Positions 1,822-14,004 of a stretch of DNA of 14,641 nt are shown in pieces (the first letter of the stretch is position 1; each line of letters begins with the position of its first letter). Where the stretch lies: positions 1-14,641 of IMG/VR virus record IMGVR_UViG_3300012347_000520; one strand, 5' to 3'. The stretch is from a virus. Taxonomy: Duplodnaviria; Heunggongvirae; Uroviricota; Caudoviricetes. The notes beneath the pieces were generated by a model. That model was not told the DNA's origin, searched no databases, and was given only the letters and a program-made list of their open reading frames with translations. Both the position numbers and the translations under genes were made by a program.

Positions 1822-1893
1822 CCCTCAACCTAGTAAACCCCAAACAACCAAACATTTTTACTATAACAACACAAGCATAACTAAAAATACATC

Positions 1894-1922
1894 TTGAAAT
1901 TATCAAAAACGTGTGTTATAAT
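1894..1922 (+). promoter_or_regulatory. sigma70-type promoter
   Basis: TTGAAA-17-TATAAT with TGn extension. Confidence 0.75.
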
Positions 1923-2272
1923 ATATGAAATATTCTCCTAGAGAATAAATTAGAAGGTTTTAGAATAAAATCTTAGGGCTCTCGGTAGACGGTGTGGGTT
2001 TTACCCAACACCAACGGACGCAGACAGCCCACTAAGATTTTTGAATCTTAGAAACCTTCATAGGTTTATAACGAATGTTCAATTGAGGGTCATTGTTTTT
2101 GTTTGCTTTATAAATACATACTATAACGTTATTGTTATGGTATTTTTTATAACTAATAATTTGTCAAAATTATACAATAAAAACAAGCCGTCCCACTTTT
2201 GGCAACCATCGCTCTAGCAACTCGACCCTAGCTAGAGCAAGATTAGGGTCTTTTTCAGCTTTTTAGCTTATT

Positions 2273-3253
2273 ATGATTATTAACAAACAACTTAAATCCA
2301 TCCCATTCGATAAACTTTACCACATGTATGAAGAAGCAGCCGCTTCTGCAATTGCTGGTATTGAATCACACATCCAATCCAAGTACGATGCAGAAGTAGA
2401 GCGCTTAGAACAAGCCTATACAGATACTCACGAAGCTCCTAGTGAAGTAGGTTTTGGCGATCAGGTCGTCAGAGAAACTTATAACGCACATGAAGTACGT
2501 CGCAGAGCAGGTAATAAAGCAATTACCGACACTTGGATCCCTCGCTACAAATTAGGGTCATTGCTAATTGCAGTAATGCCTCAGATTATGGCTTATATCA
2601 CTCAAAAACCTTTTAGATTATCTGAGGTTTCTACGGTTGAGGGTAAGTGGATTAATGGAAAAACAATGCTCAAGAACTCCTTTGATTTTACCAGTGACTG
2701 GGATCGAGGACTTTACTGCTTTTTAATGTTAGACTCGCGTTCAGCATATTTACCTACGCAGTACAAAGGTGAGGGCAGACAATTCTGTAGTTTAGTTCCG
2801 CTAATTCCTTATGCGTACAAACTACACCACAAAATTAACTACTCCCAGTGGGATCGTAATACCTTACACTGGGTCGTAAATCCTAGTTTGTGTAATGCTA
2901 TGTTATACATTCCTGACAAAGCATACACTCGTGAAGAGCTAATTCACGCTAGAGAGCTTGGTTTAGTTTACCAAACAGGTGCCAAAGCAGGTGAATCACG
3001 TAATCCAGTTTCTACTTTTAAACTTTGGGCTACTAAAGGCGGATGTATGTCTGGTGTTCCTGATCTTGCTCAAGTAATGTACACTCAAATCTGGTGTGCT
3101 CACCCACAAAATCGTTCGCACTACATGGTCTTAGACCCTAAACACTGGGACACTATGCCAACACCGCTTATTAGCGAAAACATCTTTATGCCTCCAGAAA
3201 TCAAAGTTTCACAGCCTCAATTCACAGGCCTAGAACTGCCATGGGAGGTTTGA
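2273..3253 (+). CDS. homologue of the T5 pre-early ~330-aa hypothetical protein (gene 10-like); function unknown
   Basis: Recalled similarity in SLVPL...INYSQW, RNP, QIWCAH..R..YMVLD...WD.MP and terminal LPW motifs; no SD sequence visible. Confidence 0.65.
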   Translation: MIINKQLKSIPFDKLYHMYEEAAASAIAGIESHIQSKYDAEVERLEQAYTDTHEAPSEVGFGDQVVRETYNAHEVRRRAGNKAITDTWIPRYKLGSLLIAVMPQIMAYITQKPFRLSEVSTVEGKWINGKTMLKNSFDFTSDWDRGLYCFLMLDSRSAYLPTQYKGEGRQFCSLVPLIPYAYKLHHKINYSQWDRNTLHWVVNPSLCNAMLYIPDKAYTREELIHARELGLVYQTGAKAGESRNPVSTFKLWATKGGCMSGVPDLAQVMYTQIWCAHPQNRSHYMVLDPKHWDTMPTPLISENIFMPPEIKVSQPQFTGLELPWEV

Positions 3254-3255
3254 GC

Positions 3256-3576
3256 ATGAAGTACACTAACGAATCAACCAAAAAATTAGTTGCCGACTAC
3301 CAAGCCGGAGTGACCGTCCAAGCCCTAGCCCAAGAGCTCGAGGTGCCAGAAAGATCAATAATTGCCAAGCTTAGCAGCCTCGGAGTCTACCAAAAAAAGC
3401 AGTACTTGAACAAACGCGGTGAGGTGCCAACAAAAAAGGCCGAACACATTGAAAGAATCGCAGAATTGCTTGAAGTTAACCTTGAGCTACTAGAATCACT
3501 AGAAAAGGTCAATAAACAGGTTTTAATTATGATCGAACAGAATTTAACAGCAAAATCTGACCCTAAACCGCAATAA
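3256..3576 (+). CDS. T5 A2/D3-like HTH DNA-binding protein, paralogue 1
   Basis: GGAGG RBS before ATG 3256; shares Y-x-AG-V-x-V...RS(I/V)(I/V)AKLS..GVY...KK...LESLEK with three other copies. Confidence 0.7.
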   Translation: MKYTNESTKKLVADYQAGVTVQALAQELEVPERSIIAKLSSLGVYQKKQYLNKRGEVPTKKAEHIERIAELLEVNLELLESLEKVNKQVLIMIEQNLTAKSDPKPQ

Positions 3577-3602
3577 ATTGCGTTAAATTGACTTAATCAA
3601 AC

Positions 3603-3639
3603 AAAAAGCCCGATATCGCAAGATATTCGGGCTTTTTTT
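3603..3639. terminator. bidirectional rho-independent terminator
   Basis: AAAAAGCCCGA-TATC-GCAA-GATA-T-TCGGGCTTTTTTT. Confidence 0.85.
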
Positions 3640-3768
3640 GGTCTGCGTTTTATACGGCAAATTGGGTGCTGAAAGCACCAACTAGCCCAATTTAGGCACA
3701 GCTTGATGCCGCTGCCAAAGGTTCTCAAAGTTTATACAGTTTAGGGTCAGAGTAATAGGAAAACCCAC

Positions 3769-3856
3769 TTGACAAAATCAGTTTAGTACTGGTATAATGG
3801 CGCGGATAGTTTAACCAAAACAAAAGCCCCCAAACTCGAAAGTAAGGAGGCTTTTG
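3769..3856 (+). promoter_or_regulatory. module M0 (divergent copy): promoter, GGCGC, hairpin
   Basis: TTGACA 3769-3774, 18-nt spacer, TATAAT 3793-3798, GGCGCG, AAAACAAAAG, stem CAAAAGCC(3821-3828)/GGCTTTTG(3849-3856). Confidence 0.7.
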
Positions 3857-3859
3857 AAC

Positions 3860-4650
3860 GCGCGTTTTTAACTCAACCTCAGGGCTTATAAAGCTGGTCT
3901 TCAGCCTGACCCTAAACCACGGTTACCTCGAGGGCACCATTACTGCTCGAGTTTACGGATACGGGGAGTTTTAGTTTTACGTCGGACGACGGCACGCAAA
4001 GCTTTTACAACCGGAGCGGCTTATGGTTGGGCTACAGTTTAGCCACTGCTACATGTGCTGCTCAAGTTTTATGACTTTGTGCAGTTTAGGGTCGGTGCGC
4101 TAGCGGGGTATCATCCCGCGTTACTGGCTAGGCCAGGTCTTAGATCAGATGATAGCGTCTGTATTTTATACTGTTCTTTCAGTTCCCAGTTTAGTCGTGA
4201 CCCGATCATAGCGGAGCGGGGCCTTAGGTATAGGGTAGGCTACCTAGGAGTTACTAGCTTCCATTCCAGCGTACGCGATGGCAGCTCATATGGGATTCGT
4301 CCTGACCCTAAACTGCGCCAGCGGAGTAGCGGGGAACTACTCGCACACTGGCCCGAGGCTTAGAGTTTCGCTGAAATTGCATCAGCTCATCAGAGGGATA
4401 GGGGGGCGGTGACTAGAGGCTTCGGTCACCATCAAGTTGTTATCTCTAGTCTAGGACTAGAGTCTCATAACACCAAAAAAAGTAGGGACAGCGACTCGAT
4501 TCGGCACTATTAAGACGCTATCAGCTTGCTATATGTTTTATGCTGTTCGCTGTCATCCCGTAAATAATTATAACACGAAACCGACTTTAGAAGAAAGTAA
4601 ATAATTTATAATGTTAGAGTCGGTTTCGGTTGTTATCTTGTTTTCGATAC
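3860..4650. other. ORF-free, GC-richer, multi-hairpin region (candidate structured RNA or injection-stop/origin-like DNA)
   Basis: Several stem-loops; three GACCCTAAAC sites; flanked by convergent promoters. Confidence 0.45.
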
Positions 4651-4654
4651 AATA

Positions 4655-4683
4655 ATTATATCAATAAAAAGGTCAAGCATCAA
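4655..4683 (-). promoter_or_regulatory. sigma70-type promoter with no downstream ORF
   Basis: Minus strand TTGATG-17-TATAAT. Confidence 0.6.
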
Positions 4684-4708
4684 GTTTAAATTTCTTGACC
4701 CTAAACCG

Positions 4709-5020
4709 TTAGTGTTTAACAGCTTTGGCAATCAGCTCGAGTGCATCTTTGGTAGCTTTTTCTAGAGACTCCAGCAATTCTTCGTTGGTACCAATAGCAA
4801 AGGCAATCTCTGCAATCAGCTCTGCTTTCTTTGGAGTTTGCTGACCTTTGGCTTTGGCCTTGGCTTGGTACACACCTTCGCGAGCCAGCTTTGCCACTAC
4901 TGATCGTGGGGATTTTTGCAAGCGTTGAGCAATTGCTTCTACAGTCTCGCCGCGTTGGTATGCCTCGACGACATCTTTGGTCATCTCGGGGGTATAGTTT
5001 TGTGCTTGTGCAGTCATCAT
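4709..5020 (-). CDS. A2/D3-like DNA-binding protein, paralogue 2
   Basis: AAAGGA RBS; own promoter; KSPRSVVAKLAREGVY...KKAELIAEIA...LESLEKATK. Confidence 0.8.
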   Translation of the reverse strand: MMTAQAQNYTPEMTKDVVEAYQRGETVEAIAQRLQKSPRSVVAKLAREGVYQAKAKAKGQQTPKKAELIAEIAFAIGTNEELLESLEKATKDALELIAKAVKH

Positions 5021-5059
5021 ATGTCCTTTCGTTTTGGTTTCTGCGCTGTCTAAGTATTA

Positions 5060-5088
5060 ATTATACTATCAAAAGGGAACATCGTCAA
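5060..5088 (-). promoter_or_regulatory. sigma70-type promoter for 4709-5020
   Basis: TTGACG-17-TATAAT. Confidence 0.8.
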
Positions 5089-5203
5089 ATTCAAAAATTT
5101 CCGCTTGTTGGTTGGTATTTGGCAAATTTTTTGACAACTCTGTTTGTACAAATTCTTGGAACCACTGTTCCTGATTTAACATGAAAAAATCCGTGTCTTC
5201 CAT
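5069..5203 (-). CDS. 44-aa acidic peptide ending EIFEFDDVPF (SSB C-terminal tail mimic); not in ORF track
   Basis: MEDTDFFMLNQEQWFQEFVQTELSKNLPNTNQQAEIFEFDDVPF; AGGAG RBS; own promoter. Confidence 0.75.
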   Translation of the reverse strand: MEDTDFFMLNQEQWFQEFVQTELSKNLPNTNQQAEIFEFDDVPF

Positions 5204-5230
5204 AAGCCAGTATCTCCTGTTGATGTAATA

Positions 5231-5259
5231 ATTATATCAAAATCAATTCTGCACTTCAA
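5231..5259 (-). promoter_or_regulatory. sigma70-type promoter for the 44-aa ORF
   Basis: TTGAAG-17-TATAAT. Confidence 0.75.
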
Positions 5260-5546
5260 ATAAATAAATTTCAAGTTGACACTGCACTAAGCCTGTAACA
5301 ACATGGTCAAATTTGCACTTGACTGCGCACTGGCGCGGCACCACTAAAAATTTAGAATTGCCACTTTCCCACTGGCGCAGCGCGCTTGTGTAGTACGAAA
5401 GTACTCTTTTTCATAATGTGGCAGACCGCTTCATCAGGTGAAATTTTATGGTAATTTTTAATTTTGCATCAATAATTATTGATTATTAATTACGGGCGTG
5501 GCGCAAGAATCATGCCAGAGTAAATTACTCGGATATAAAAAAATTC

Positions 5547-5639
5547 TTGACACCTGCCCCAAAATTGTGGTACAATTTTGGCGCCTGAAAATGAATACTT
5601 TTGTTTCCAATATTTTCTGGAAACAAAAGTATTCATTTT
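5547..5639 (+). repeat. module M1: promoter, -10 palindrome, GGCGCC, perfect 22-bp inverted repeat
   Basis: TTGACA 5547-5552, TACAAT 5571-5576; arms AAAATGAATACTTTTGTTTCCA 5588-5609 and 5618-5639. Confidence 0.9.
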
Positions 5640-5647
5640 TTAAGCAT

Positions 5648-5709
5648 AAAAAAACCCGCCAAAAGGCGGGGGAAATTCCAAACCCAAAAATTTTGGGTTT
5701 TGGTTTTTT
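5648..5709. terminator. tandem terminator hairpins, one per strand
   Basis: CCCGCC-AAAA-GGCGGG preceded by an A-run (minus strand); AAACCCAAAA/TTTTGGGTTT followed by a T-run (plus strand). Confidence 0.75.
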
Positions 5710-5721
5710 CATTTTTGATAA

Positions 5722-6063
5722 TTAAACGGGCTTAGAATTTGCCAATGCTTTAAAAATCTTTTCCAATGCGGTTTTATTCGCTTTAGTCAGTGATTCGGTT
5801 TCGGCTTCGGTCAAATTCAAAACCGCGCCGATTGCATCCGCGTGCGCGTCTTTGCGAACCACGGGTGCGCCCGTTTTGGTTTTGTATTCTTTAGCCTTAT
5901 AGACTTTTTCGCGTGAAAGTTTGGCCACAATAGAGCGGACAGATTTACCCAATTCAGCGGCGATTGTTTCCACGGCCACGCCCGCAGAATAATCGGCCAC
6001 CATTTTAGCGGTTTGTTCGGCGGTGTAGTTAACAGAACGGGCAGAGACAGATTTGCTAGTCAT
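5722..6063 (-). CDS. A2/D3-like DNA-binding protein, paralogue 3
   Basis: AAGGA RBS; TTGAAA-17-TATAAT promoter (6086-6114); closely similar to 10835-11158. Confidence 0.85.
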   Translation of the reverse strand: MTSKSVSARSVNYTAEQTAKMVADYSAGVAVETIAAELGKSVRSIVAKLSREKVYKAKEYKTKTGAPVVRKDAHADAIGAVLNLTEAETESLTKANKTALEKIFKALANSKPV

Positions 6064-6129
6064 TTTCGTTTTCCTTTAAAATTAAATTATAACACAGATT
6101 TTTCAGATTTTCAAGATTTTTTAAATTAT

Positions 6130-6342
6130 TTACAAATAATTTACCAAACCGATTACGTTAGCCAAAAAGAACACAGTTTGCAGAGCAATGTAATTCTTTT
6201 GTTTCTGCTTAATGGCCGAAACCATTAAACAAAAAGAACTCACAAAAAAGAACGGGTAACCAAATTGTGCGAACTTTAACGCTACCAAAAACGCGCCAAT
6301 AATGCCAGTTATTGTGCCAATGGTTTCAAGAATTTTTGTCAT
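6130..6342 (-). CDS. 3-TM protein resembling the N-terminal half of PnuC (nicotinamide riboside transporter family)
   Basis: LETIGTITG..L.A...YPF..VS...LQTVF..NVIG pattern; three hydrophobic helices. Confidence 0.55.
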   Translation of the reverse strand: MTKILETIGTITGIIGAFLVALKFAQFGYPFFFVSSFCLMVSAIKQKQKNYIALQTVFFLANVIGLVNYL

Positions 6343-6441
6343 TTTGTTTTGCTCGTTTGTTTTGTTTTGCTATGTGCCAATTATACCACCAAATCGGGGC
6401 AAAAAACACAATTAATAAAATAATTCCATTTAAAAATTGTT

Positions 6442-6819
6442 TCATCGTTTTATGTCCATTGTGTGAAAAGGGTCAGCCCGTAGGCCGTAGTTTACCATAA
6501 TTTCGCACCATTTTTCGCCGTGTCCCGTTTTATCTTCGCTTTCACCGAAAAGGTTAAAATCGGCTTGATGGATAATTTCGTGAGGCAAAATAACGTCAAT
6601 CATATTATAGCAGAATTTTTTGCTATGCGTAAAAAATTTGTACCCTAATTCGATTTTGTTGTTTTCTTGATCTGCCAAGCCAGCCACGCGCCACAACCTA
6701 CCATTTAGGCTAATTTCGGGGCATTCGTAAAAAGCCAAGGCGGGATAAATTTCGCAAAGCGAATCCCAAACCATTGTGGATTCACGTTTTAGCAATCGGG
6801 TTAACATCGTTTTGTCCAT
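6442..6819 (-). CDS. SprT-like zinc metalloprotease (likely leaderless start MDKT at 6819)
   Basis: ILPHEIIHQ (HEXXH)...GHGEKW..IM, the SprT signature; I.L..KF motif upstream. Confidence 0.8.
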   Translation of the reverse strand: MDKTMLTRLLKRESTMVWDSLCEIYPALAFYECPEISLNGRLWRVAGLADQENNKIELGYKFFTHSKKFCYNMIDVILPHEIIHQADFNLFGESEDKTGHGEKWCEIMVNYGLRADPFHTMDIKR

Positions 6820-6909
6820 GTAAAGATTATACAACAAAAACCGCAAAAAATCCGTTTAGATCATTGAAAAAATTAATCGGGGCAATAGTGAAAATTAATT
6901 GCCAAATGC

Positions 6910-7003
6910 TTGACACACCCCAAAATTATATGCTATAATTTTGGCGCCCCAAAATGTAATACTTTTGTTTCCAATATTTTCTGGAAACAAAAGTATTCAT
7001 TTT
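6910..7003 (+). repeat. module M2
   Basis: TTGACA 6910-6915, 18 nt, TATAAT 6934-6939, GGCGCC, ACTTTTGTTT 6961-6970 / AAACAAAAGT 6985-6994. Confidence 0.9.
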
Positions 7004-7017
7004 ATTTCGGGCAAAAT

Positions 7018-7039
7018 AAAAAGCCCCGAAGGGCTTTTT
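7018..7039. terminator. bidirectional terminator
   Basis: AAAAAGCCC-CGAA-GGGCTTTTT. Confidence 0.8.
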
Positions 7040-7046
7040 AAAAGTG

Positions 7047-7304
7047 TTAACTTTTGTTTCTGGTGGGTTTTATTTTGTAAAACAAAATAACCAAAAGAAA
7101 AATTAAATTCGCGGTATAGTTGAAAACCAAAGGCCACAAAAGGGTTGGCAAAACGTAAACAAAAGTAAACACCTCGCCCCAAAACCACATGGCCAAAAAT
7201 CCCCACGTAAGACCATCCGAATTTTTTACGCGGTAACTTTCCACGGCTTGAGGCAACCCACAAAACGCAAAAAGAATTGAACCCAGCCAGCCGATTGTTT
7301 CCAT
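7047..7304 (-). CDS. PQ-loop / SemiSWEET-like 3-TM protein
   Basis: IGWLGSILFAFCGLPQ...KNSDGLTWGFL...N pattern typical of a PQ-loop repeat. Confidence 0.8.
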   Translation of the reverse strand: METIGWLGSILFAFCGLPQAVESYRVKNSDGLTWGFLAMWFWGEVFTFVYVLPTLLWPLVFNYTANLIFLLVILFYKIKPTRNKS

Positions 7305-7435
7305 TTTTAGCCCCTATAAATTTCGTCTACCGTTATTGTATTATAACACGATTCAAAAATAAATTCATCCAATAATTTTTTATCGTTGTATAAATGCAAC
7401 AAAAGAGCAAAAACCCACAAATATCTCATTTTTTA

Positions 7436-7459
7436 AATGTAGGCCTTTCGGCCTACATT
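7436..7459 (-). terminator. stem-loop after the exonuclease gene
   Basis: Perfect 10-bp stem AATGTAGGCC/GGCCTACATT with a GAAA loop on the minus strand; U-tract short. Confidence 0.55.
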
Positions 7460-7466
7460 CTCCACA

Positions 7467-8165
7467 TTATTTAGCTTGAAAGTGGTCACGGGTTTGAAAT
7501 TCGCGCCAGTTGTAAGGTGTAACCTTTTGTTTCCAATCGCGTTTTTTGATAATTTCGCGTAAAATCGGCAATTCAAAATCCCGCGCATCTTCTAAAGCCG
7601 TATGGGGTTCGTCTTTAAATTCGCCAGTAATAAACCCACAAACGATCTCGGCGTTTGTCTTAAAAGTCATATTGCCAAATTCAGTTGGGGCATTGAACGC
7701 ATGATTTTCTAAGCAAAATTGTTTGAATTTTTTAGTATTGCAAACATTACCAACGGCGGCCTGCCACAAACAAAAGTTATCAGAAAAACCGTCTAAATTA
7801 ATGCTTGTGTTTGCACATTTTGATTTATCAAAAGCCAAATTGTAAGCGGTCAAAGTTGGGTTATACTTGCCAATGGCTTGATTAATCCAGTTATTGATTG
7901 CAGAAACAGAAGCTAACATTCTAGAACCAGAATTAAGCATATCGTTGTATTTTGCGCGTTTTTCCTTGGCATATTGCAAAGACCAAAGACCCTTTGCATT
8001 TTTATCATAAAACAATTCGTGCGCGTCAAATTGATCTTTTACCAATACCGCGCATTGATTGTAGATTTTGCCTTCGCGATCACAAATTACAATGGCAAAA
8101 TCTGCCACAGTGTCAGCGATAGTTGTTTCAGTGTCAAGAATTGCAAAGAATTGTTTTTTAGCCAT
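7467..8165 (-). CDS. DEDDh (DnaQ-like) 3'-5' exonuclease
   Basis: ExoI LDTETT, ExoII AYNLAFD, ExoIII HTALEDA. Confidence 0.88.
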   Translation of the reverse strand: MAKKQFFAILDTETTIADTVADFAIVICDREGKIYNQCAVLVKDQFDAHELFYDKNAKGLWSLQYAKEKRAKYNDMLNSGSRMLASVSAINNWINQAIGKYNPTLTAYNLAFDKSKCANTSINLDGFSDNFCLWQAAVGNVCNTKKFKQFCLENHAFNAPTEFGNMTFKTNAEIVCGFITGEFKDEPHTALEDARDFELPILREIIKKRDWKQKVTPYNWREFQTRDHFQAK

Positions 8166-8186
8166 TTTGTTTTCAATTTTGAAATA

Positions 8187-8234
8187 TTACCGAATCTGTC
8201 GGAATTCGCAGATAGTAGCGTTTTTCGCTACCAT
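8187..8234 (-). CDS. possible leaderless 15-aa uORF (MVAKNATICEFRQIR)
   Basis: TATAAT-N6-ATG; may equally be non-coding leader. Confidence 0.3.
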   Translation of the reverse strand: MVAKNATICEFRQIR

Positions 8235-8333
8235 GAAAAGATTATAACGCAAAAAGCCCAAAAAATCCGCTTCTACCAAAAATAAATGAAATATTTATTT
8301 TGTTGTTTTTTGGCGAAATTAGGGTTTACCCTA

Positions 8334-8417
8334 TTGACACCCGCGCAATTTTACGAGTAAAATTGGCGCCTTTGGAAACAAAAGTATTCATTTTCAAAAT
8401 GTAACCTTTTGTTTCCA
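8334..8417 (+). repeat. module M3, with inverted-repeat arms in swapped order
   Basis: TTGACA 8334-8339, 18 nt, TAAAAT 8358-8363, TGGCGCC; TGGAAACAAAAGTATTCATTTT 8373-8394 then AAAATGTAACCTTTTGTTTCCA 8396-8417. Confidence 0.88.
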
Positions 8418-8424
8418 AAAAAGA

Positions 8425-8444
8425 AAAGCCCCTCGCGGGGCTTT
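8425..8444. terminator. bidirectional terminator
   Basis: AAAGCCCC-TCGC-GGGGCTTT. Confidence 0.75.
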
Positions 8445-8446
8445 GT

Positions 8447-8923
8447 TTAGTGACCTTGCACGCTTGGCACGTACACGCCTCGAATATTAAAACGATCACA
8501 AACCGCTTTTAGATAACTAATATTATCTTCGTAAAAAACAAAATCAGCGTCTTTGAAAGTTACCAAATTAAAGAACTTTGTCAAGCCATTAATTTTTAAG
8601 GTTTTGCCTGAAATATCCGAACCTTGGGGGCGTGAGATAAAATAATCGGGAGCGCCTAAAATATCATCAACAAATTGCCAATCGGGTTCATTCATTACCC
8701 GCGCAGTTGCAATAATGACATAACAATTTTCGTCTTTTAAGTCTTGGCGGTATTGCTCAAACATTGGCAATAATCCATCATCCATAGCGCGGTATTCATT
8801 TTCGCGCCAGTGGTCAAGGTCAATGCGCGTGCCGTTTTCATCCGTGATTGTGCGATAACGGTGTGAAGAATCTACGATTGTGCCATCCATGTCATAAATT
8901 GCTACGCGGGTAATTTTAGCCAT
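8447..8923 (-). CDS. dmp: HAD-family phosphatase, T5 Dmp-like deoxynucleoside-5'-monophosphatase
   Basis: YDMDGTIVDSSHR, IIATAR, YEDN HAD motifs; recalled similarity to T5 Dmp (WDLDGTIINSFHR...IICTAR); AAGGA RBS. Confidence 0.75.
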   Translation of the reverse strand: MAKITRVAIYDMDGTIVDSSHRYRTITDENGTRIDLDHWRENEYRAMDDGLLPMFEQYRQDLKDENCYVIIATARVMNEPDWQFVDDILGAPDYFISRPQGSDISGKTLKINGLTKFFNLVTFKDADFVFYEDNISYLKAVCDRFNIRGVYVPSVQGH

Positions 8924-8967
8924 TTTGTTTCCTTGTTTAGAAGATTAGATTATACCACAAATTTTCG

Positions 8968-9090
8968 TCATTCAGACAAAAATTGCTCTAATGCGCCCAA
9001 ATATTCTAGCATATTTGCGAATTGTAAGCCGTGGCGATCACAAAAGCGATCAAAGCGGGCAATCTGTGTTTTAGTGTATTTTGTTTTCAT
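8968..9090 (-). CDS. 40-aa leaderless ORF, not in ORF track (MKTKYTKTQIARFDRFCDRHGLQFANMLEYLGALEQFLSE)
   Basis: TATAAT-CTACAC-ATG; fills the gap between dmp and M4. Confidence 0.65.
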   Translation of the reverse strand: MKTKYTKTQIARFDRFCDRHGLQFANMLEYLGALEQFLSE

Positions 9091-9180
9091 GTGTAGATTA
9101 TAGCGCAAAAAATGGCAAAAAGCCGTTTCGATCATTAAAAAAATTAATCGCCCCGATAGCGAAAAACAATCGGAAAATTC

Positions 9181-9268
9181 TTGACAAACCCCAAAATTAT
9201 GTGGTATAATTTTGGCGCCTGAAAATGAGAACTTTTGTTTCTCATTTTCTTTGCAAACAAAAGTATTA
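9181..9268 (+). repeat. module M4
   Basis: TTGACA 9181-9186, 18 nt, TATAAT 9205-9210, GGCGCC, ACTTTTGTTT 9231-9240 / AAACAAAAGT 9255-9264. Confidence 0.9.
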
Positions 9269-9460
9269 CAAATCGTAAACCTTCATTGTGAGATTTAATT
9301 GCACAAAATGGGTTTCTTGATTTATAAAATCAACAATTAGCAAAATCTCGCCATTGTAAAATAATCCCGTATTGGCTTTAATTTCATTTTTTGCCGCTTC
9401 TACGGTCTTGAATGAAGGCCAACCATATACGCGCCCCTTTGTGTTGAATACATCGTACAT
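9266..9460 (-). CDS. hypothetical protein (64 aa, start MYDV)
   Basis: TAA-AA-ATG coupling to the upstream gene. Confidence 0.65.
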   Translation of the reverse strand: MYDVFNTKGRVYGWPSFKTVEAAKNEIKANTGLFYNGEILLIVDFINQETHFVQLNLTMKVYDL

Positions 9461-9462
9461 TT

Positions 9463-9753
9463 TTAATCCCAAGTTTTAAATTGCATCATAAAATCACGGG
9501 TTTGCCCGTTGAATTTCATTTTCACCCATTCTGGGTTTTCTTCAATTTTAATAGGCATATTTTCTGTAATAAATTCCTCCAACATATTAAAAAACCAGTT
9601 AGGAATAACAACAAAAACCCAAACCAGTGGCATGATAACAAAAACGCCAAAAAAGAATTTTAGCACGTTTTGCCAAGAATAAAAGTATTTGAATTTTACA
9701 ATCTGCCAGTTAGCACGTTTGATCTGCCAGAATTTTTTAGTGAGAATATTCAT
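9463..9753 (-). CDS. membrane-anchored hypothetical protein (start MNIL)
   Basis: GAAGGG RBS; one long hydrophobic segment; TATAAT at 9785-9790. Confidence 0.7.
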   Translation of the reverse strand: MNILTKKFWQIKRANWQIVKFKYFYSWQNVLKFFFGVFVIMPLVWVFVVIPNWFFNMLEEFITENMPIKIEENPEWVKMKFNGQTRDFMMQFKTWD

Positions 9754-9754
9754 T

Positions 9755-10108
9755 TTAAGACCCTTCCATTGAAACAATGTCCACATTATAGCACGTCAAA
9801 AAGTGTTTTCGCCATATTTCAAATTCTTTTTCGTGATCTAGTTCTTTGTCGTTTTCCATTTGCCAAGCATGAACATATTCATGTGCCATTGTAGCAAATA
9901 GGTCGATCTGATCTTTAATCTCAGATGTAGCTAAACGGATAATGTGAAAATGCTTTTTAGCATTGATTCTATAACCCTCATACACGGCAAAGCACGAAGC
10001 CCCATCCATGCGAATCACGCGATTCTTACGAAAGTTTACGTGACTTTTTAATTTGAAAATGTCTTGCAACATTAGCTGGAATAAGCGTACATCAACGGAT
10101 CGAATCAT
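9755..10108 (-). CDS. zincin-like metallopeptidase (SprT-related)
   Basis: TMAHEYVHAWQ...DHEKEF (HEXXH plus downstream H). Confidence 0.7.
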   Translation of the reverse strand: MIRSVDVRLFQLMLQDIFKLKSHVNFRKNRVIRMDGASCFAVYEGYRINAKKHFHIIRLATSEIKDQIDLFATMAHEYVHAWQMENDKELDHEKEFEIWRKHFLTCYNVDIVSMEGS

Positions 10109-10109
10109 T

Positions 10110-10289
10110 TTAGTCTACCTGAATATCAATGATTTCTGTTTGTTCTGGGTTCACAATGTAATAAATTGTAAGATTGCCCGCAGAAGCCATGTATGTGTTT
10201 TCGCGTGTCTTTGTGACAGTGTGAAAAGATTTGAAGTCTAAAGCCACGGCTTTAGCTACGATTTCGGGGATTGTGTTTTTCGTTGTCAT
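10110..10289 (-). CDS. hypothetical protein (likely leaderless start MTTK)
   Basis: TATACT-N6-ATG; TAA-A-ATG coupling to the next gene. Confidence 0.65.
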   Translation of the reverse strand: MTTKNTIPEIVAKAVALDFKSFHTVTKTRENTYMASAGNLTIYYIVNPEQTEIIDIQVD

Positions 10290-10380
10290 GTGTGTAGTAT
10301 ACCCCAATTTTCCTCAGTTGTCCCCAATTCGCCATTGTTATTTTCTATTGCCCCGATTAATAAAAACAATCACAAAACGC

Positions 10381-10468
10381 TTGACAACCCCCAATTATAC
10401 GTGGTATAATTGGCGCGTCCAAAATGAGAACTTTTGTTTCTCATTTTGTTTCGCAAACAAAAGTATTA
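10381..10468 (+). repeat. module M5
   Basis: TTGACA 10381-10386, 18 nt, TATAAT 10405-10410, TGGCGC, ACTTTTGTTT 10430-10439 / AAACAAAAGT 10455-10464. Confidence 0.9.
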
Positions 10469-10780
10469 AAATAATACCCTTGTATCTTCTTCGTTAAGTG
10501 TAACGGGGTCGCCGTGTTTGGCTAATTTCAAAAGTTTTTGAGCGTGGTCAAGATCGCCCCAAGCATACACGGAACGCCACCCCCAACAGTCCGAATTATC
10601 AAGCGCCTTAATTGCTTGCTCCTCGGTCATGTAATAAAACCCGCGCCAACCTAATGCGCGCCGCGCCATGCGCTTTGCGATTGCTTTATCGTCTCGCGCT
10701 TTGCGATGCGCCTTGATGTGTTCAATTACATTTTCGCAGGCTTTGATAACCTTTGCGGATTCCATTACAATAGTTGCCAT
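10466..10780 (-). CDS. hypothetical protein (104 aa)
   Basis: AAGGG RBS; extended -10 TGaTATAAT at 10804-10809. Confidence 0.75.
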   Translation of the reverse strand: MATIVMESAKVIKACENVIEHIKAHRKARDDKAIAKRMARRALGWRGFYYMTEEQAIKALDNSDCWGWRSVYAWGDLDHAQKLLKLAKHGDPVTLNEEDTRVLF

Positions 10781-10812
10781 GATGTGCCCTTGTTGAAAGT
10801 TACATTATATCA

Positions 10813-10833
10813 CAAAGGGGCATTGCCCCTTTG
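10813..10833 (-). terminator. hairpin after paralogue 4
   Basis: CAAAGGGGCA-T-TGCCCCTTTG. Confidence 0.6.
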
Positions 10834-10834
10834 C

Positions 10835-11158
10835 TTATTGCTTCTCAGCCTTGATAAAATCAGCAATTGCTTTCAATGCTGTTTTGTTGGCCTTGGTAAG
10901 CGAATCCGCATCCGCTTCGCTCAAGCCCAAAGCCTGTGCGATTGCGTCAGCAAATTCGTCTTTTTTAACAACGGCCTCGCCTGTCTTGGTTTTGTATTCC
11001 TTGGCCTTGTAAACCTTCTCGCGTGAAAGTTTAGCAACAACAGAGCGCACAGATTTGCCAAGCTCGGCGGCCATAGCTTCAACAGTTACGCCTTGCAGGT
11101 AGTCAGCAACCATTTTAGTAGTTTGCTCGGGGGTGTAGTTTACGGCTTTTGCAGTCAT
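10835..11158 (-). CDS. A2/D3-like DNA-binding protein, paralogue 4
   Basis: GGAG RBS; TTGCAT-17-TATACT promoter (11201-11229); ELGKSVRSVVAKLSREKVYKAKEYKTKTG nearly identical to paralogue 3. Confidence 0.85.
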   Translation of the reverse strand: MTAKAVNYTPEQTTKMVADYLQGVTVEAMAAELGKSVRSVVAKLSREKVYKAKEYKTKTGEAVVKKDEFADAIAQALGLSEADADSLTKANKTALKAIADFIKAEKQ

Positions 11159-11177
11159 TTTAAATTCTCCTAAAAAG

Positions 11178-11270
11178 TTAAGGTTTCATCACAAAAACAA
11201 AGTATAACACAAACGGCAAGGCAATGCAAGCGGCAAAGGCCAAAGCATCTAAAGTTTGTTTGATTGTCAT
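11178..11270 (-). CDS. 30-aa single-TM peptide, not in ORF track (MTIKQTLDALAFAACIALPFVLYFVFVMKP)
   Basis: AAGGA RBS; TTGTTT-17-TATAAT promoter (11299-11327). Confidence 0.6.
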   Translation of the reverse strand: MTIKQTLDALAFAACIALPFVLYFVFVMKP

Positions 11271-11499
11271 TTGTATCATTCCTTGTTGCGATGGAATTAT
11301 TATAACGCATAAATCATAGAAAAACAAGATTATTTCAATTATTTTCTAGAGATAAACACCTATAGATTTTGTGCTAGTTTAGTGCTATAATGACTAGGGG
11401 CGGTTATTAGACTCAAGTTTTCACACACACGTGGGGGCCCTACCCCACGGAAAACTTCATAGATAATTCTCATAAACACACAAGGTGCTAAACTATAGC

Positions 11500-11570
11500 C
11501 TAACTGACCCTAAACTGCCCCTAACTACCCAATCTCACCAAACTACCCAAACCCCCCCAAACCTCCCTAA
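11500..11570. repeat. C/A-rich degenerate ~10-bp tandem tract
   Basis: C-runs at 11508, 11518, 11528, 11546, 11552, 11565; almost no G on the plus strand. Confidence 0.65.
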
Positions 11571-11581
11571 AAAAATTCAAC

Positions 11582-11611
11582 TTGCCTAAATACTTGCCCC
11601 CGTGGTATACT
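11582..11611 (+). promoter_or_regulatory. promoter for terS-terL
   Basis: TTGCCT-18-TATACT with TGG extension. Confidence 0.65.
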
Positions 11612-11630
11612 TGCCCCAAAGGATGGATCT

Positions 11631-12137
11631 ATGACCCAATTACCCCAAACACAACCTACCTCTGCGCCTGCCGAGGTATTGCAAATTTCCCCTGAGAACC
11701 TGGAAATTGCCAACGCATTCCTGCAACTACAAGATTCACAAAAAGTTGCCTATGAGCTAGATATTCCCGTGGACATGGTTACCCGAGTTTTAGCCCGTGC
11801 CGAGATAAAGGCTTATGTTAACCAAGTTTTCTTTGAAGTCGGCTTTAACAACCGTTTTCAAATGCGCGAGCTTATGGATACCTTAATTAAGAAAAAGCTT
11901 CAAGACATGTCAGAGTCTGAAACAGGAAGCAATAAGGATATCTTAGATATTCTCGCTCAATCACATAAAATGACCATGGAGCTCATGGACAAAGAAATCC
12001 AGCTTGAAAAACTACGTGCTCAAAATGCAGCAGCCGGAATTAAGTCGCAAGTCAACGTACAAATCAACGAAGGACTCGGTGACGGTACCAAGTACGGTGC
12101 CTTAATATCCAAGTTGATTTCTGGAGAGTCTCAATAA
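11631..12137 (+). CDS. terS: terminase small subunit (T5-type)
   Basis: Directly upstream of terL; N-terminal HTH; recalled T5 TerS similarity (GF.NR, KKL.., DI.DIL..HKM, QVNVQIN). Confidence 0.8.
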   Translation: MTQLPQTQPTSAPAEVLQISPENLEIANAFLQLQDSQKVAYELDIPVDMVTRVLARAEIKAYVNQVFFEVGFNNRFQMRELMDTLIKKKLQDMSESETGSNKDILDILAQSHKMTMELMDKEIQLEKLRAQNAAAGIKSQVNVQINEGLGDGTKYGALISKLISGESQ

Positions 12138-13424
12138 ATGTTAACTATCTCTAGACCAGATGTTGAGCGCGAAGCAATTACAGAGTTTGCAGCTGACAAA
12201 CGATTTATTAAGCTGCCGATTACCAACTACCTTAAATTGCTAGGAATCTGGGAAACTATCAACGAGCCCCAAATTGCGTTAATTAACGCAGTCAACGACC
12301 CTAAGTACCGTTTTGTTTGTGCTGCCTTAGCACGTCGTCTTGGTAAAACTTATATTGCCAACGTTATCGGGCAACTAGTTACACTTGTCCCAGGTGCTAA
12401 CGTATTAATTATATCGCCAAACTACAACTTATCAACAATTTCGTTTGAGTTACAGCGTCGTTTAATCAAACACTTTGACTTAGAAATTTCTCGTGATAAC
12501 TTAAAGGATCGCATTATCGAGCTATCAAATGGTTCGACCATTAGAATGGGTTCGTTATCTACAGTGGATAGTTGTGTTGGTAGGAGCTATGACTTGATTA
12601 TTTTTGACGAAGCGGCTTTGGGAGCCGATGGTGAAGCCGCGTTTAACGTTGCCTTACGCCCTACACTAGACAAGCCTAATTCTAAGGCTATTTTTATTTC
12701 CACGCCTCGTGGTAAAAACAACTGGTTCTCCAGATTTTTTGAGCGTGGATTCTCGGCGGACTTTCCAGAGTGGTGTTCGATTACAGCTGACTACACAGAG
12801 AATGCTCGTATGGCTGAGTCGGACGTTGCAGAAGCTCGTAAGTCAATGTCAAAAGCTGAATTCGAACAAGAATACATGGCCTCATTTAATACGTTTGAAG
12901 GTCAGATTTATCAGCTTGAAGAGCAGCAGATCTTAGACTACGTTCCCTTAGACGGCGATGAATCTATTGCTGGCTGTGACCCTGGTTATCGTGATGCCAC
13001 GGCGTTTGTGGTATTAATCTACCAAACACAAACTGATAAGTTTCATGTGGTTGATGAGTACCTAAAATCCGAAGCTACCACAGACAAGCATGCTGAAGCG
13101 TTTCAGGAACTTATTTCTAAATGGGGCATAGATGCGATCTTTATTGACTCTGCAGCGCCACAGTTTGCGTCAGACTTAGCTTATCTTTATGACATTGCGT
13201 CAATTAAAGCTAAAAAAGACGTACTACCTGGAATCGCGTATGTTCAAACCTTAATCGAAACTGGTCGTTTAGTAGTTGCTCCACACTGTACACATACCCT
13301 AGCTATGCTAGACCAGTACCGCTGGGATACTCGCGAAACCTTGACTATGGAAAAGCCAATCCATGATGAATATTCTCACATGGCTGACGCGCTCCGATAC
13401 GCTTTGTATACTTATACTCTTTAA
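12138..13424 (+). CDS. terL: terminase large subunit (T5-type)
   Basis: Walker A ARRLGKT, Walker B LIIFDEAA, ISTPRG coupling motif, RNase H-like nuclease GCDPG...SHMADALRY. Confidence 0.96.
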   Translation: MLTISRPDVEREAITEFAADKRFIKLPITNYLKLLGIWETINEPQIALINAVNDPKYRFVCAALARRLGKTYIANVIGQLVTLVPGANVLIISPNYNLSTISFELQRRLIKHFDLEISRDNLKDRIIELSNGSTIRMGSLSTVDSCVGRSYDLIIFDEAALGADGEAAFNVALRPTLDKPNSKAIFISTPRGKNNWFSRFFERGFSADFPEWCSITADYTENARMAESDVAEARKSMSKAEFEQEYMASFNTFEGQIYQLEEQQILDYVPLDGDESIAGCDPGYRDATAFVVLIYQTQTDKFHVVDEYLKSEATTDKHAEAFQELISKWGIDAIFIDSAAPQFASDLAYLYDIASIKAKKDVLPGIAYVQTLIETGRLVVAPHCTHTLAMLDQYRWDTRETLTMEKPIHDEYSHMADALRYALYTYTL

Positions 13425-13511
13425 CTAAACTCAAGTAATTATTCCTTATTTTATCATATCTAAGTGTTATGTTCAAATCAATATTTCACACCTGGTGAAA
13501 AATTTTCGTAG

Positions 13512-13540
13512 TTGACATTTCCCTGCTCCGGTGATATAAT
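13512..13540 (+). promoter_or_regulatory. sigma70-type (late) promoter
   Basis: TTGACA-17-TATAAT with TGa extension. Confidence 0.85.
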
Positions 13541-13572
13541 AGGAATAATTACAAAAACGTGCCTAAAAATTA

Positions 13573-13995
13573 ATGGCTAAAAATACGAATAACCGCATCC
13601 CTGTCAAATGGATCAGGGACAAAGCAAAAGCAGCTTACGAGAAACAATCCCACTGTTACGTCTGTAGCAAAACGGAAGATCTCGAACTGCATCACCTTCA
13701 TTCCATTACTATACTGTTGAACCGTTGGGCTGATCGCAAAGGATATGATATATCCACAGACGACGGAATCTTAGCTGTTAGAGATGAGTTTATTGCGGAA
13801 CATCGGATTGAGTTATATGACTTGGTTTACACTTTGTGTAACAAGCACCATGTAGCTTTACACGGCGTTTATGGCAAGGCTCCTGCTTTCGGTAGCGAAG
13901 AACGACAGAAAAACTGGATTGAAAAACAAAAAGCTAAAGCTGAGGGAAGAGCTCCTGCACAGGATTCTTTATCGCTCTTTGGCAAATTCTTGTAA
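13573..13995 (+). CDS. HNH endonuclease, T5 nicking-endonuclease-like
   Basis: CYVC...LELHHLH...TLCNKHHVALH; same terL-nickase-portal synteny as T5. Confidence 0.85.
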   Translation: MAKNTNNRIPVKWIRDKAKAAYEKQSHCYVCSKTEDLELHHLHSITILLNRWADRKGYDISTDDGILAVRDEFIAEHRIELYDLVYTLCNKHHVALHGVYGKAPAFGSEERQKNWIEKQKAKAEGRAPAQDSLSLFGKFL

Positions 13996-14004
13996 AGGAC
14001 AACC

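Follow-up and report, generated by a model that had tools for sequence, protein, structure and literature searches.

PeSL (promoter-early stem-loop) cassettes have been described in the T4-type phages RB49/phi1, PST/T4 and nt-1/KVP40 (Arbiol et al. 2010, PMC2839356; Comeau et al. 2014, PMC4122927), with subclasses in which the stem-loop lies between the promoter boxes or overlaps the -10 or the -35 box (PMC2839356). In phage N4, the early promoters P1-P3 of the virion RNA polymerase form hairpins with stems of 5-7 bp, a 3-nt loop and a GC-rich heptamer centred at -11; extrusion of the hairpin is driven by supercoiling, and it is read on the template strand by the 3500-aa virion polymerase with host SSB (PMC4496689). 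An N4 promoter hairpin inserted between the -35 box of rrnB P1 and its -10 box left this promoter without activity in vivo, and a gyrase inhibitor brought activity back (Dai et al. 1997, as summarised in PMC4496689). A cruciform at exsBA of Vibrio parahaemolyticus, attenuated by HlyU, is outlined in PMC10325908. Finally, the left terminal repeat of T5 contains palindrome-rich untranslated repeat regions among small early genes (Davison, bioRxiv 10.1101/866236).

Of the kinds known, the closest to the promoters analysed here is the PeSL cassette. The window (the whole 14,641-nt stretch of DNA that was analysed) comes from a freshwater T5-like phage, and homologues of its palindromic promoters occur in uncultured relatives. 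The terminase is ~50% identical to that of T5-like Vibrio phages, and the genome has, besides a long tape measure, tail genes of the siphovirus type.

Five palindromic promoters and their surroundings

A first-pass annotation had placed a palindrome over the -10 element of five modules (M1-M5), and all five were found base-exact in the window sequence, in an identical promoter register (Table 1). The modules share a near-consensus TTGACA, an 18-nt spacer, TAtAAT and then GGCGCC, and they are the top five sigma-70 matches within 5200-11400 (scores of 12, 12, 12, 11 and 11 out of 12). The -35 box is TTGACA in 5/5 modules, the -10 box is TATAAT in 3/5 with TACAAT or TAAAAT in the remaining modules, and TGn is present in 4/5. 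Each palindrome takes in the final 10-14 nt of the spacer, the -10 hexamer and 2-5 nt further, the right arm consisting of the hexamer and discriminator and the left arm occupying the spacer. This places it upstream of the +1 predicted by promoter geometry, in agreement with the annotation. A:T pairs make up most of each stem, which is perfect over 9-11 bp in all five modules and has no more than 2-4 G:C pairs at its base, and four different half-sites occur within the window (AAAATTAT, AATTTTAC, AATTATAC and AAAATTGT).

Table 1. Promoters, palindromes, transcript regions and neighbouring genes of the module array
Feature	Position	Strand	Description
M1 promoter	5547..5585	+	-35 TTGACA 5547-5552, 18-nt spacer, -10 TACAAT 5571-5576, GGCGCC 5580-5585
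M1 palindrome	5559-5581		CCAAAATTGT-GGT-ACAATTTTGG, 10-bp arms, loop GGT
M1 transcript body	5588..5712	+	perfect 22-bp hairpin 5588-5639, GGAAACAAAAGTATTCATTTT box in both arms
M1 terminators	5655-5670; 5680-5700	-; +	plus-strand terminator with T-run
M2 promoter	6910..6948	+	-35 6910-6915, -10 TATAAT 6934-6939, GGCGCC 6943-6948
M2 palindrome	6920-6944		CCAAAATTATA-TGC-TATAATTTTGG, 11-bp arms, loop TGC
M2 hairpin RNA region and terminator	6951..7040	+	hairpin RNA region 6951-7003, bidirectional terminator 7017-7040
M3 promoter	8334..8370	+	-35 8334-8339, -10 TAAAAT 8358-8363, GGCGCC 8365-8370
M3 palindrome	8346-8365		CAATTTTAC-GA-GTAAAATTG, 9-bp arms, loop GA
M3 hairpin RNA region	8371-8419	+	GGAAACAAAAGTATTCATTTT box of M1, arm order swapped
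M3 bidirectional terminator	8425-8444		ends M3 region 8371..8444 (+)
M4 promoter	9181..9219	+	-35 9181-9186, -10 TATAAT 9205-9210, GGCGCC 9214-9219
M4 palindrome	9191-9215		CCAAAATTAT-GTGGT-ATAATTTTGG, 10-bp arms, loop GTGGT
M4 transcript start	9220..9265	+	two overlapping alternative hairpins
M4 hairpins			GAAAATGAGAA/TTCTCATTTTC with loop CTTTTGT; alternative ACTTTTGTTT/AAACAAAAGT
M5 promoter	10381..10417	+	-35 10381-10386, -10 TATAAT 10405-10410, GGCGCG 10412-10417
M5 palindrome	10391-10413		CCAATTATAC-GTG-GTATAATTGG, 10-bp arms, loop GTG
M5 transcript start	10419..10465	+	two-hairpin design as in M4
Non-palindromic control promoter	3769..3803	+	TTGACA, 18 nt, TATAAT, GGCGCG; second class, conserved spacer ..CACTGG
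Small-gene cassettes between modules	5722..11158	-	all opposite in strand to the modules
D5/GcrA-like DNA-binding paralogues	5722-6063; 10835-11158	-
SprT-like ORFs	6442-6819; 9755-10108	-
PQ-loop ORF	7047-7304	-
232-aa ORF	7467-8165	-
Kinase/HAD-like ORF	8447-8923	-

The M1-M5 palindromes are not explained by chance. Modelled as a first-order Markov sequence, the 78.6-kb genome yields 1-4 perfect palindromes whose arms reach at least 9 bp, whereas five were observed in one promoter register. Folded as single-stranded DNA, M1-M5 gave -6.9 to -9.1 kcal/mol (z -2.8 to -4.9), compared with -1.8 kcal/mol (z -0.6) for the control promoter at 3769. When left halves were shuffled among 33 palindromic promoters from the phage group, summed stem length was 223 +/- 14 against the observed 337, a value reached by 0/2000 permutations.

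In the window and in three relatives, palindromic promoters oppose the flanking ORFs without exception, and their predicted products are short hairpin RNAs, transcribed convergently with the genes upstream. Neither this orientation nor the parallel with PeSL cassettes had been remarked upon in the first-pass annotation. Every cassette has its own -10 box ~80 bp behind the -35 box of the next module (e.g. TATAAT-N6-ATG before 6819), and these minus-strand promoters seemingly function without a -35 box. The terminator scan and the sequence revealed no GC-rich terminator after M4 or M5. Four D5/GcrA-like paralogues, matching the PHROG families 'transcriptional regulator, D5-like' and 'DNA binding protein', flank the module array, and the set is present 4/4 in four genomes.

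Collinearity with the related genome G001 is lost at M3 (8267-8447), where G001 carries a different module; the gene at 10466-10780 is located elsewhere in G001, which has no M5. A single type of upstream flank occurs in combination with many types of palindrome and RNA, and chimeric arms were never seen despite freely recombining flanks. Palindromic promoters thereby appear, purely by association, to mark borders where gene cassettes are exchanged.

Arm pairing is maintained among homologous promoters

Among all loci fetched from related viral contigs, 174/218 distinct promoter strings contained a palindrome of at least 8 Watson-Crick pairs. Symmetry is maintained across these homologues, with 1796 Watson-Crick pairs in total vs ~30 interior mismatches, and wobble-type pairs number just 15 (10 G.T and 5 C.A). 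A scan of viral contigs queried with the right arm alone (TATAATTTTGGCGC) returned 58 distinct promoters with TTGAC and an 18-nt spacer, and 54 of them had a perfect palindrome of 9-14 bp. By comparison, 0/10 promoters with a 17-nt spacer and 2/43 matches without TTGAC in register were palindromic, and both exceptions were of the same promoter type: one a GTGACA variant, the other the reverse strand of a palindromic promoter with 14-bp arms.

At least eight different arm sequences were compensated in both arms, including TATAATATTGG/CCAATATTATA, ATAATTTCGG/CCGAAATTAT, TAAAATTTTGGC/GCCAAAATTTTA, ATAATTTTTG/CAAAAATTAT, GTATAATGG/CCATTATAC and ACAATTTTGG/CCAAAATTGT. Where the third hexamer base is T, A or C, the left arm correspondingly carries A, T or G, and the T-run behind the hexamer (0, 1 or 3 T) has its counterpart in the left-arm A-run. 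One pair position exists among related modules in A:T, G.T and G:C states, and in M1 the compensating base falls within the -10 hexamer, giving TACAAT.

The geometry of the repeat varies. Identical half-site cores are separated by 5 nt in 61 promoters and by 3 nt in 21, and the gap is 4, 5 or 6 nt in the remaining arm types; thus half-site spacing differs by 1-3 bp among promoters sharing identical arms. The symmetry centre shifts between -13 and -15.5, loops measure 2-6 nt and stems 8-14 bp, and the outermost CC/GG pairs are dispensable. Loop bases and spacer filler vary freely while the arms remain paired, the 18-nt spacer and GGCGC being common to all palindromic promoters. Genomes differ in how many palindromes they have and of which types, and the same phages possess a second promoter class with a conserved, non-palindromic spacer (..AGGTTTnnCACTGG).

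Because the arms are compensated, wobble pairs are scarcely tolerated and loop and spacing vary, the comparison supports the view that selection targets complementarity in DNA, rather than a helix in RNA or any one operator sequence. The annotation had proposed compensatory changes and selection beyond an operator sequence, and the homologues bear out both. It had further allowed the hairpin to form either in DNA or in minus-strand RNA; here the near absence of G.T and A.C pairs favours the DNA-level constraint and speaks against an RNA helix on either strand.

A possible torsion-sensitive cruciform and alternative readings

An example of a cruciform-controlled sigma-70 promoter was reportedly provided by Horwitz and Loeb in 1988. 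We suggest, tentatively and as possible rather than probable, that M1-M5 contain a selected DNA-level inverted repeat within strong sigma-70-type cassettes, acting as a torsion-sensitive cruciform in which the -10 box is concealed. The right arm would be fixed by promoter function, because it comprises the -10 hexamer and discriminator, and the left arm, in an otherwise free spacer, would be held exactly complementary to it. Negative superhelical stress would extrude a small cruciform, and single-stranded DNA would form a hairpin; the extruded repeat would remove the -10 box from duplex register with the -35 box and switch the promoter off. Promoter output would then be set by local DNA torsion, which should be high because each module promoter stands back to back with the promoter of the next cassette, ~80 bp away. 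We infer this to be the likeliest account of the extrusion, of what it does to transcription and of how torsion enters; if true, no protein would be needed for such control. The N4 hairpin placed in rrnB P1 offers an experimental precedent. By a rough estimate, moreover, extruding 23-25 bp releases 14-18 kcal/mol at sigma -0.06 and 19-30 kcal/mol at -0.08 to -0.10, and formation of a cruciform costs ~13-18 kcal/mol.

Several observations weigh against the cruciform. At ordinary superhelical density the energies balance only marginally, and with 8-12 pairs, most of them A:T, the arms are short for a repeat that is to extrude spontaneously. The virion DNA of T5-type phages is linear, and nicked in T5 itself, so that a stably supercoiled state is uncertain and any torsion would have to be local and driven by transcription. 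Additionally, the conserved spacer of the second promoter class suggests that a factor acting in trans can read spacers in these phages, the modules have four conserved D5/GcrA-like DNA-binding paralogues encoded as neighbours, and strand-switching templated at quasi-palindromes could maintain arm identity without functional selection.

The palindrome might instead be an operator, at which a dimeric phage or host protein such as a D5/GcrA-like paralogue represses by covering the -10 box. The position is the classical one for a repressor, candidate paralogues flanking the array are conserved four for four in four genomes, and the spacer of the other promoter class resembles a protein site, yet we consider this explanation doubtful. 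The half-sites are not conserved, with at least eight arm sequences overall and four in the window, and identical half-sites have no fixed centre-to-centre distance; a gap that varies by 1-3 bp is tolerable for a hairpin and intolerable for a rigid dimer, and therefore favours the hairpin. Moreover, the outermost CC/GG pairs can be lost, inner positions covary and are neither fixed nor free, and the paralogues stay constant at four while palindromes differ in number and type by genome.

It is unlikely that the palindrome acts as a PeSL-type stem-loop in read-through RNA (plus strand from the previous module, minus strand from the upstream cassette) that attenuates, processes or stabilises the transcript. 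The M1-M3 terminators separate genes from the palindrome, and plus-strand genes upstream are absent. M4 and M5 have no GC-rich terminator, making read-through on both strands plausible there, and PeSL stem-loops, some of which overlap the -10 box, are known as terminators or attenuators of upstream transcription. However, the terminator scan did not call the palindromes as intrinsic terminators, there being no GC-rich stem plus U-run; beyond the hairpin, the plus strand reads CGCC and the minus strand reads GGGnnGTGTCAA. A ratio of 15 G.U-type to 1796 Watson-Crick pairs would also be unusual for a mostly A-U RNA helix.

Quite unlikely, in our judgement, is a neutral by-product, in which an ancestral palindromic cassette spread by duplication and recombination, and template switching during replication copied changes between the arms. 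Quasi-palindromes are known to mutate by templated correction, the common 18-nt spacer and GGCGC fit shared descent, and copying of the left arm onto the right would predict the weaker -10 box of M1 (TACAAT). Against this, the palindrome is kept in 80% of 218 diverged promoters whose adjoining filler and loop are scrambled, and arm chimeras are missing although the flanks recombine freely. Promoters of the same build without a palindrome also exist, indicating that it can be lost when unneeded.

We regard as very unlikely an arrangement of two back-to-back -10 elements, with the left arm serving as the -10 box of a leftward promoter for the next minus-strand cassette. By symmetry the minus strand reads TATAAT or nearly so, a consensus scan found weak mirror promoters at M4 and M5 (9-10 of 12), and cassette promoters appear to manage without a -35 box. 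Nevertheless, no mirror -35 or TGn is conserved, the cassettes already own a -10 box ~80 bp further on, and leaderless starts would sit inside a long leader. Complementarity also enters the discriminator and follows its length, which is unexpected of two independent -10 boxes.

Finally, it is hardly credible that a single-subunit RNA polymerase encoded by the phage reads the modules as N4-type hairpin promoters: the short-loop hairpin upstream of the start site is the sole supporting point, the stems are AT-rich with 8-14 bp, loops of 2-6 nt and a centre at -13 to -15.5, a perfect TTGACA/TATAAT promoter is superimposed, and ORFs of >1500 aa in the record (26% of its genome missing) and in the complete relative G002 encode tape measure, tail fibre or lectin fibre proteins only. 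A search for PF00940 gave no match in the four genomes G000-G003 (G000 being the record), and the control was likewise without a match anywhere. With no virion RNA polymerase in the record or the complete relative, and with longer AT-rich stems in a sigma-70 promoter, the N4 analogy drawn by the annotation does not extend to membership.

Comparison with described systems

The N4 promoters resemble those described here in having a short-loop hairpin just upstream of the start, in which non-conserved stem bases need only to pair; they differ in their dedicated polymerase, whereas here the AT-rich stems of 8-14 bp are overlaid by a host-type promoter. Cruciform-controlled bacterial sigma-70 promoters likewise have an inverted repeat in or near the core promoter, and there its extrusion under negative supercoiling blocks transcription. 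Those are single engineered or natural cases, in contrast to the more than 170 natural promoters and comparative evidence presented here.

The T5 left terminal repeat belongs to the same broad lineage and also displays conserved palindromes and repeats amid small early genes, but there the palindromes are described alongside DnaA boxes and the signal that stops injection, and not as promoters. When the first 50 kb of T5 were scanned, no promoter showed a palindrome exceeding 7 bp across its -10 box. The TG/GCGCC of the modules fits the T5 nick consensus N-Pu/pGCGC-N, taken from the T5 record annotation, but not the GCGCAGGG common to the three T5 sites read; assembled contigs cannot display nicks.

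PeSL cassettes, like M1-M5, are sigma-70 early promoters close to consensus that occur repeatedly and contain a stem-loop; also shared are a location among small, variable genes and the coincidence of these elements with borders of cassette gain, loss or replacement. They occur in T4-type myoviruses, whereas the modules belong to a T5-like siphovirus. The PeSL stem contains a GGGG..CCCC block and is a GC-rich terminator or attenuator, while the AT-rich stem here is formed by the -10 hexamer and discriminator and, as no U-run lies behind it, does not function as a terminator. PeSLs are upstream of and co-oriented with small ORFans, unlike the promoters here, which oppose the ORFs and drive putative hairpin RNAs, with an 18-nt spacer and a conserved GGCGCC start region of their own. 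What is new is a promoter/stem-loop cassette variant in T5-like phages, its stem built from the -10 box.

Palindromic promoters in the window and its relatives

Five repeated modules lie on the plus strand of the window, opposite to the genes of ~5.5-11.2 kb, where all credible genes are on the minus strand. Each module consists of TTGACA, an 18-nt spacer, TATAAT and then GGCGCC, the exceptions being the -10 sequences TACAAT (module 1) and TAAAAT (module 3) and GGCGCG in module 5, and a simple consensus scan returned these modules as the top five promoter matches of the region. The five palindromes that the first-pass annotation had described over these promoters were confirmed to the letter and to the position (Table). 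In every module the right arm is formed by the -10 hexamer with two to five discriminator bases and the left arm by the promoter-distal part of the spacer. One to four such palindromes per 78.6 kb occurred in Markov copies of the genome. Folded as ssDNA, the five palindromes gave -6.9 to -9.1 kcal/mol, far under shuffled sequences; the promoter at 3769, which has the same build and no palindrome, did not fold far under its shuffles.

Table. Coordinates of the module palindromes and of the D5-like paralogues (103-113 aa)
Feature	Position	Strand	Remark
Module 1 palindrome	5559-5581	+	in sequence letter for letter
Module 2 palindrome	6920-6944	+	in sequence letter for letter
Module 3 palindrome	8346-8365	+	in sequence letter for letter
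Module 4 palindrome	9191-9215	+	in sequence letter for letter
Module 5 palindrome	10391-10413	+	in sequence letter for letter
D5-like paralogue	3241-3576	+	
D5-like paralogue	4709-5020	-	
D5-like paralogue	5722-6063	-	
D5-like paralogue	10835-11158	-	

Homologous promoters were first sought in viral contigs using the 20-nt box of the module transcripts and the pattern TTGAC-N24-32-GGCGC. The same promoter type was found in many contigs, including the complete 99.7-kb genome of a relative (G002), and 33 of the 49 distinct promoters in this set were palindromic. When left halves were permuted among these 33, the summed stem length fell from the observed 337 to 223 +/- 14, and 0 of 2000 permutations attained the observed value. 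An unbiased scan of relatives, with the right arm TATAATTTTGGCGC as the sole query, gave a perfect 9-14 bp palindrome in 54 of 58 distinct hits with TTGAC and an 18-nt spacer, in 0 of 10 hits with a 17-nt spacer and in 2 of 43 hits lacking TTGAC in the 18-nt register. Both TTGAC-less exceptions belong to the same promoter type, one being a GTGACA variant and the other the reverse strand of a palindromic promoter with 14-bp arms. Pooling all loci yielded 251 modules and 218 distinct promoter strings, with at least eight Watson-Crick pairs in 174 of the latter, indicating that the symmetry is maintained across homologous promoters; the pooled palindromes comprised 1796 Watson-Crick pairs and ~30 interior mismatches. 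Because the symmetry centre shifts between promoters, covariation was assessed by permutation and per-type counts rather than by a single-structure covariation count.

The 78.6-kb record, of which the window is the initial 14.6 kb, has an estimated completeness of 74%. Its large terminase is ~50% identical to those of T5-like Vibrio phages, and of its two giant ORFs one encodes a tape measure protein, the other a fibre with a lectin domain. Six freshwater DNA runs (metagenomes) contain small shares of the stretch, with no RNA run among the sequencing runs listed as containing it. A megablast search of positions 5400-11400 against cultured phages gave no match, and Rfam returned nothing at gathering scores and microRNA-like hairpin noise only at E up to 1. 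The 'terminal repeat' of G002 was found to be a 105-bp assembly overlap, which gives no position relative to the genome ends.

Constraint on the palindrome arms

At least eight different arm sequences were found, each matched in the opposite arm. The third base of the hexamer is T, A or C and the -13 base is G or A, and the left arm mirrors the discriminator in all its forms (TTTT, TTT, TT, T, none, ATT, TTC and TTTTT). One pair varies between A:T, G.T and G:C among related modules, and the compensating change in the window's module 1 falls inside the -10 hexamer itself. Loops of 2-6 nt vary freely, usually retaining the TGn of the extended -10, and the symmetry centre ranges from -13 to -15.5. 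Identical half-site cores are separated by 5 nt in 61 promoters and by 3 nt in 21, other types scattering similarly. Outermost CC/GG pairs are frequently absent, and some palindromes reach into GGCGC, with arms of up to 14 bp.

Among the alternatives to selection on DNA structure, a protein operator at the palindrome survives best, although the varied arms, shifting centre and changing core gap fit a dimeric, sequence-specific site poorly. As possible readers, four small proteins of DNA-binding type match the PHROG 'transcriptional regulator, D5-like', with a weak Pfam match to GcrA. Each of four related genomes has exactly four copies, of which two bracket the module array, and their number is independent of palindrome number or type. 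One D5-like paralogue per palindrome type was rejected, since all four genomes carry four paralogues whatever their palindrome set.

An RNA stem-loop within read-through transcripts ranks second. Were the constraint at the level of RNA, from whichever strand, many wobble pairs should have been tolerated; such pairs are rare in the pooled set (G.T 10, C.A 5), and in a mostly A:T helix this scarcity makes the constraint look like true DNA complementarity. Neutral templated homogenisation, by which the arms would be made alike without selection, is less probable again, and mirrored -10 boxes less so than that. Least probable is a promoter of the phage N4 type, a link raised in the first-pass annotation that fails here: a family search for T7-/N4-like polymerases found none in four genomes (its control was likewise silent), and all ORFs >1500 aa in the window record and in the complete relative G002 encode tail proteins.

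Together, the compensated arms, the few wobbles and the variable loop, centre and gap fit a structure-level constraint. The earlier proposal of selection on pairing is thus supported by covariation across the homologues and narrowed to the DNA level, the palindrome probably being selected as DNA complementarity, with hairpin formation and its role as proposals.

Promoter orientation, transcripts and cassette borders

In the window and three relatives, every palindromic promoter faces against the flanking ORFs. The predicted product is a short RNA opening with a strong hairpin and, for modules 1-3, ending at a terminator that also serves converging genes. The module -35 box is placed behind the -10 box of the next minus-strand cassette, at a distance of ~80 bp. 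Several of these cassettes (6819-6846, 8231-8254, 9087-9110 and 10296-10310) begin with TATAAT (or TATACT)-N6-ATG, a unit that is itself a conserved repeat. They have neither a Shine-Dalgarno sequence nor a recognisable -35 box, a layout suggestive of leaderless mRNAs. Among the cassette genes are two paralogous SprT-like metalloproteases (6442-6819 and 9755-10108), a single PQ-loop membrane protein (7047-7304) and a fragment-like 70-aa match to nicotinamide mononucleotide transporters (6130-6342).

It is at the modules that the window ceases to be collinear with its closest relatives. One of these relatives, G001, carries a different module in place of module 3 and lacks module 5, and the gene that follows module 5 in the window is located elsewhere in that genome. 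One upstream flank type joins many palindrome types and many downstream RNAs, yet despite this mixing chimeric (mismatched) arms are almost never found.

The transcripts share a box, GGAAACAAAAGTATTCATTT, without an Rfam match (5588-5639, 6951-7003, 8371-8419, 9220-9265 and 10419-10465; also 7037-7060 and 7507-7536). It occurs across modules and phages in three arrangements: as a perfect 22-bp hairpin in which the arms may take either order; as a pair of direct copies, each with its own hairpin and the loop CAAAAGTATTCA; or beside a hairpin with a 7-nt loop that reads either ACAAAAG or the complement of this, CTTTTGT. The stem of this last hairpin is identical in both cases, as though the loop had been flipped. 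In many modules the -35 box is directly preceded by another short palindrome, (T)AGGG-N4-6-CCCT(A) (e.g. 8318-8333), module 3 having ttagggtttacccta directly ahead of TTGACA. In modules 2, 4 and 5, repeats of the ATCG(G/C)CCCGAT type are found instead, 25-45 bp upstream.

Approximately 44 promoters of the same build lack a palindrome, most having a conserved spacer ..AGGTTTnnCACTG(G), indicating that promoter function as such does not require the palindrome. One non-palindromic promoter in every genome examined heads a long, ORF-free structured region (from 3769 onward in the window). At 3769-4690 the promoter, with spacer ..CACTGG, is followed by the hairpin CAAAAGCC..GGCTTTTG and then ~0.8 kb without ORFs, an arrangement also present in the related records examined. 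Possible analogues of this region are the stable RNAs annotated in the T5 record (NC_005859), namely a 719-nt 'RNAX, stable RNA with unknown functions' and several others. Repeats of the form GCACTTGA-N6-10-CACTGGCGC, resembling a CACTG-class promoter minus its -10 hexamer, occur at 5290-5390 and, in two further loci (L010 and L054), downstream of CACTG-class promoters. The 9-mer GACCCTAAA occurs eight times on the plus and six times on the minus strand of the 78.6-kb record (742-14425 in the window, and the rest), clustering at ~3.1-4.7 kb and 11.5 kb and being absent from the module block.

Proposed mechanism and relation to known systems

The mechanism we favour is formation of a DNA hairpin or cruciform under negative torsion. 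Extrusion would break the register between the -10 box and the -35 box, making very strong promoters self-limiting or torsion-gated. By a rough estimate, extrusion at sigma -0.06 releases 14-18 kcal/mol, and more at higher local torsion. Cruciform formation costs ~13-18 kcal/mol, so extrusion would be plausible mainly with transcription-driven local supercoiling, which back-to-back promoters should generate.

We consider it improbable that this extends to palindromic promoters acting as protein-free torsion governors, so that the expression of each early gene cassette would be coupled to supercoiling and limit itself. Each strong promoter, making only a short hairpin RNA on a linear T5-type genome without global supercoiling, would be a local supercoiling pump serving the -35-less, partly leaderless cassette promoter back to back ~80 bp away; high negative torsion between the two promoters would then extrude the spacer/-10 cruciform and turn the pump off.

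Control of natural bacterial-type promoters by small cruciforms in vivo is an old idea with thin support, mostly from engineered constructs and phage N4. This phage group supplies >170 natural sigma-70 promoters in which the -10 box is one palindrome arm and strict Watson-Crick covariation preserves arm complementarity, together with natural non-palindromic controls of the same build in the same genomes, making the idea directly testable. It also points to a predicted family of short, strongly promoted hairpin RNAs opposing every early gene cassette.

T5 itself has palindrome-rich untranslated regions. Its first 50 kb, when scanned, contained no promoter palindrome >7 bp, which speaks against palindromic promoters as a general T5 trait. 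GGCGCC fits the short consensus of the T5-type nick site but not the GCGCAGGG of the three T5 sites read; GCGCAGGG is common to the nicked strand at the annotated major nick sites 9748, 22336 and 39746 (NC_005859), with a perfect 18-bp palindrome, GCAGGGCAATTGCCCTGC, after the first of these.

Among described systems the nearest is the promoter-early stem-loop (PeSL) cassette of T4-type phages, a strong sigma-70 promoter that incorporates a stem-loop between the boxes or overlapping the -10 or -35. PeSLs cluster among small variable genes and have been linked to cassette shuffling (PMC2839356, PMC4122927). Promoter, embedded stem-loop and mosaic borders are common to both, so that T5-like siphoviruses join T4-type myoviruses as carriers of such cassettes and of their link to shuffling. 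Besides this difference in lineage, the stem here is AT-rich and made of the -10 box itself, the elements are without any terminator signature, the promoters are oriented against the genes, and the predicted product is a short hairpin RNA. With the N4 virion-polymerase promoters the sole likeness is the idea of a supercoil-extruded hairpin (PMC4496689). When an N4 promoter hairpin was placed between the -35 and -10 of rrnB P1, activity was lost in vivo and restored by a gyrase inhibitor (PMC4496689), which is the best experimental precedent for the favoured cruciform mechanism.
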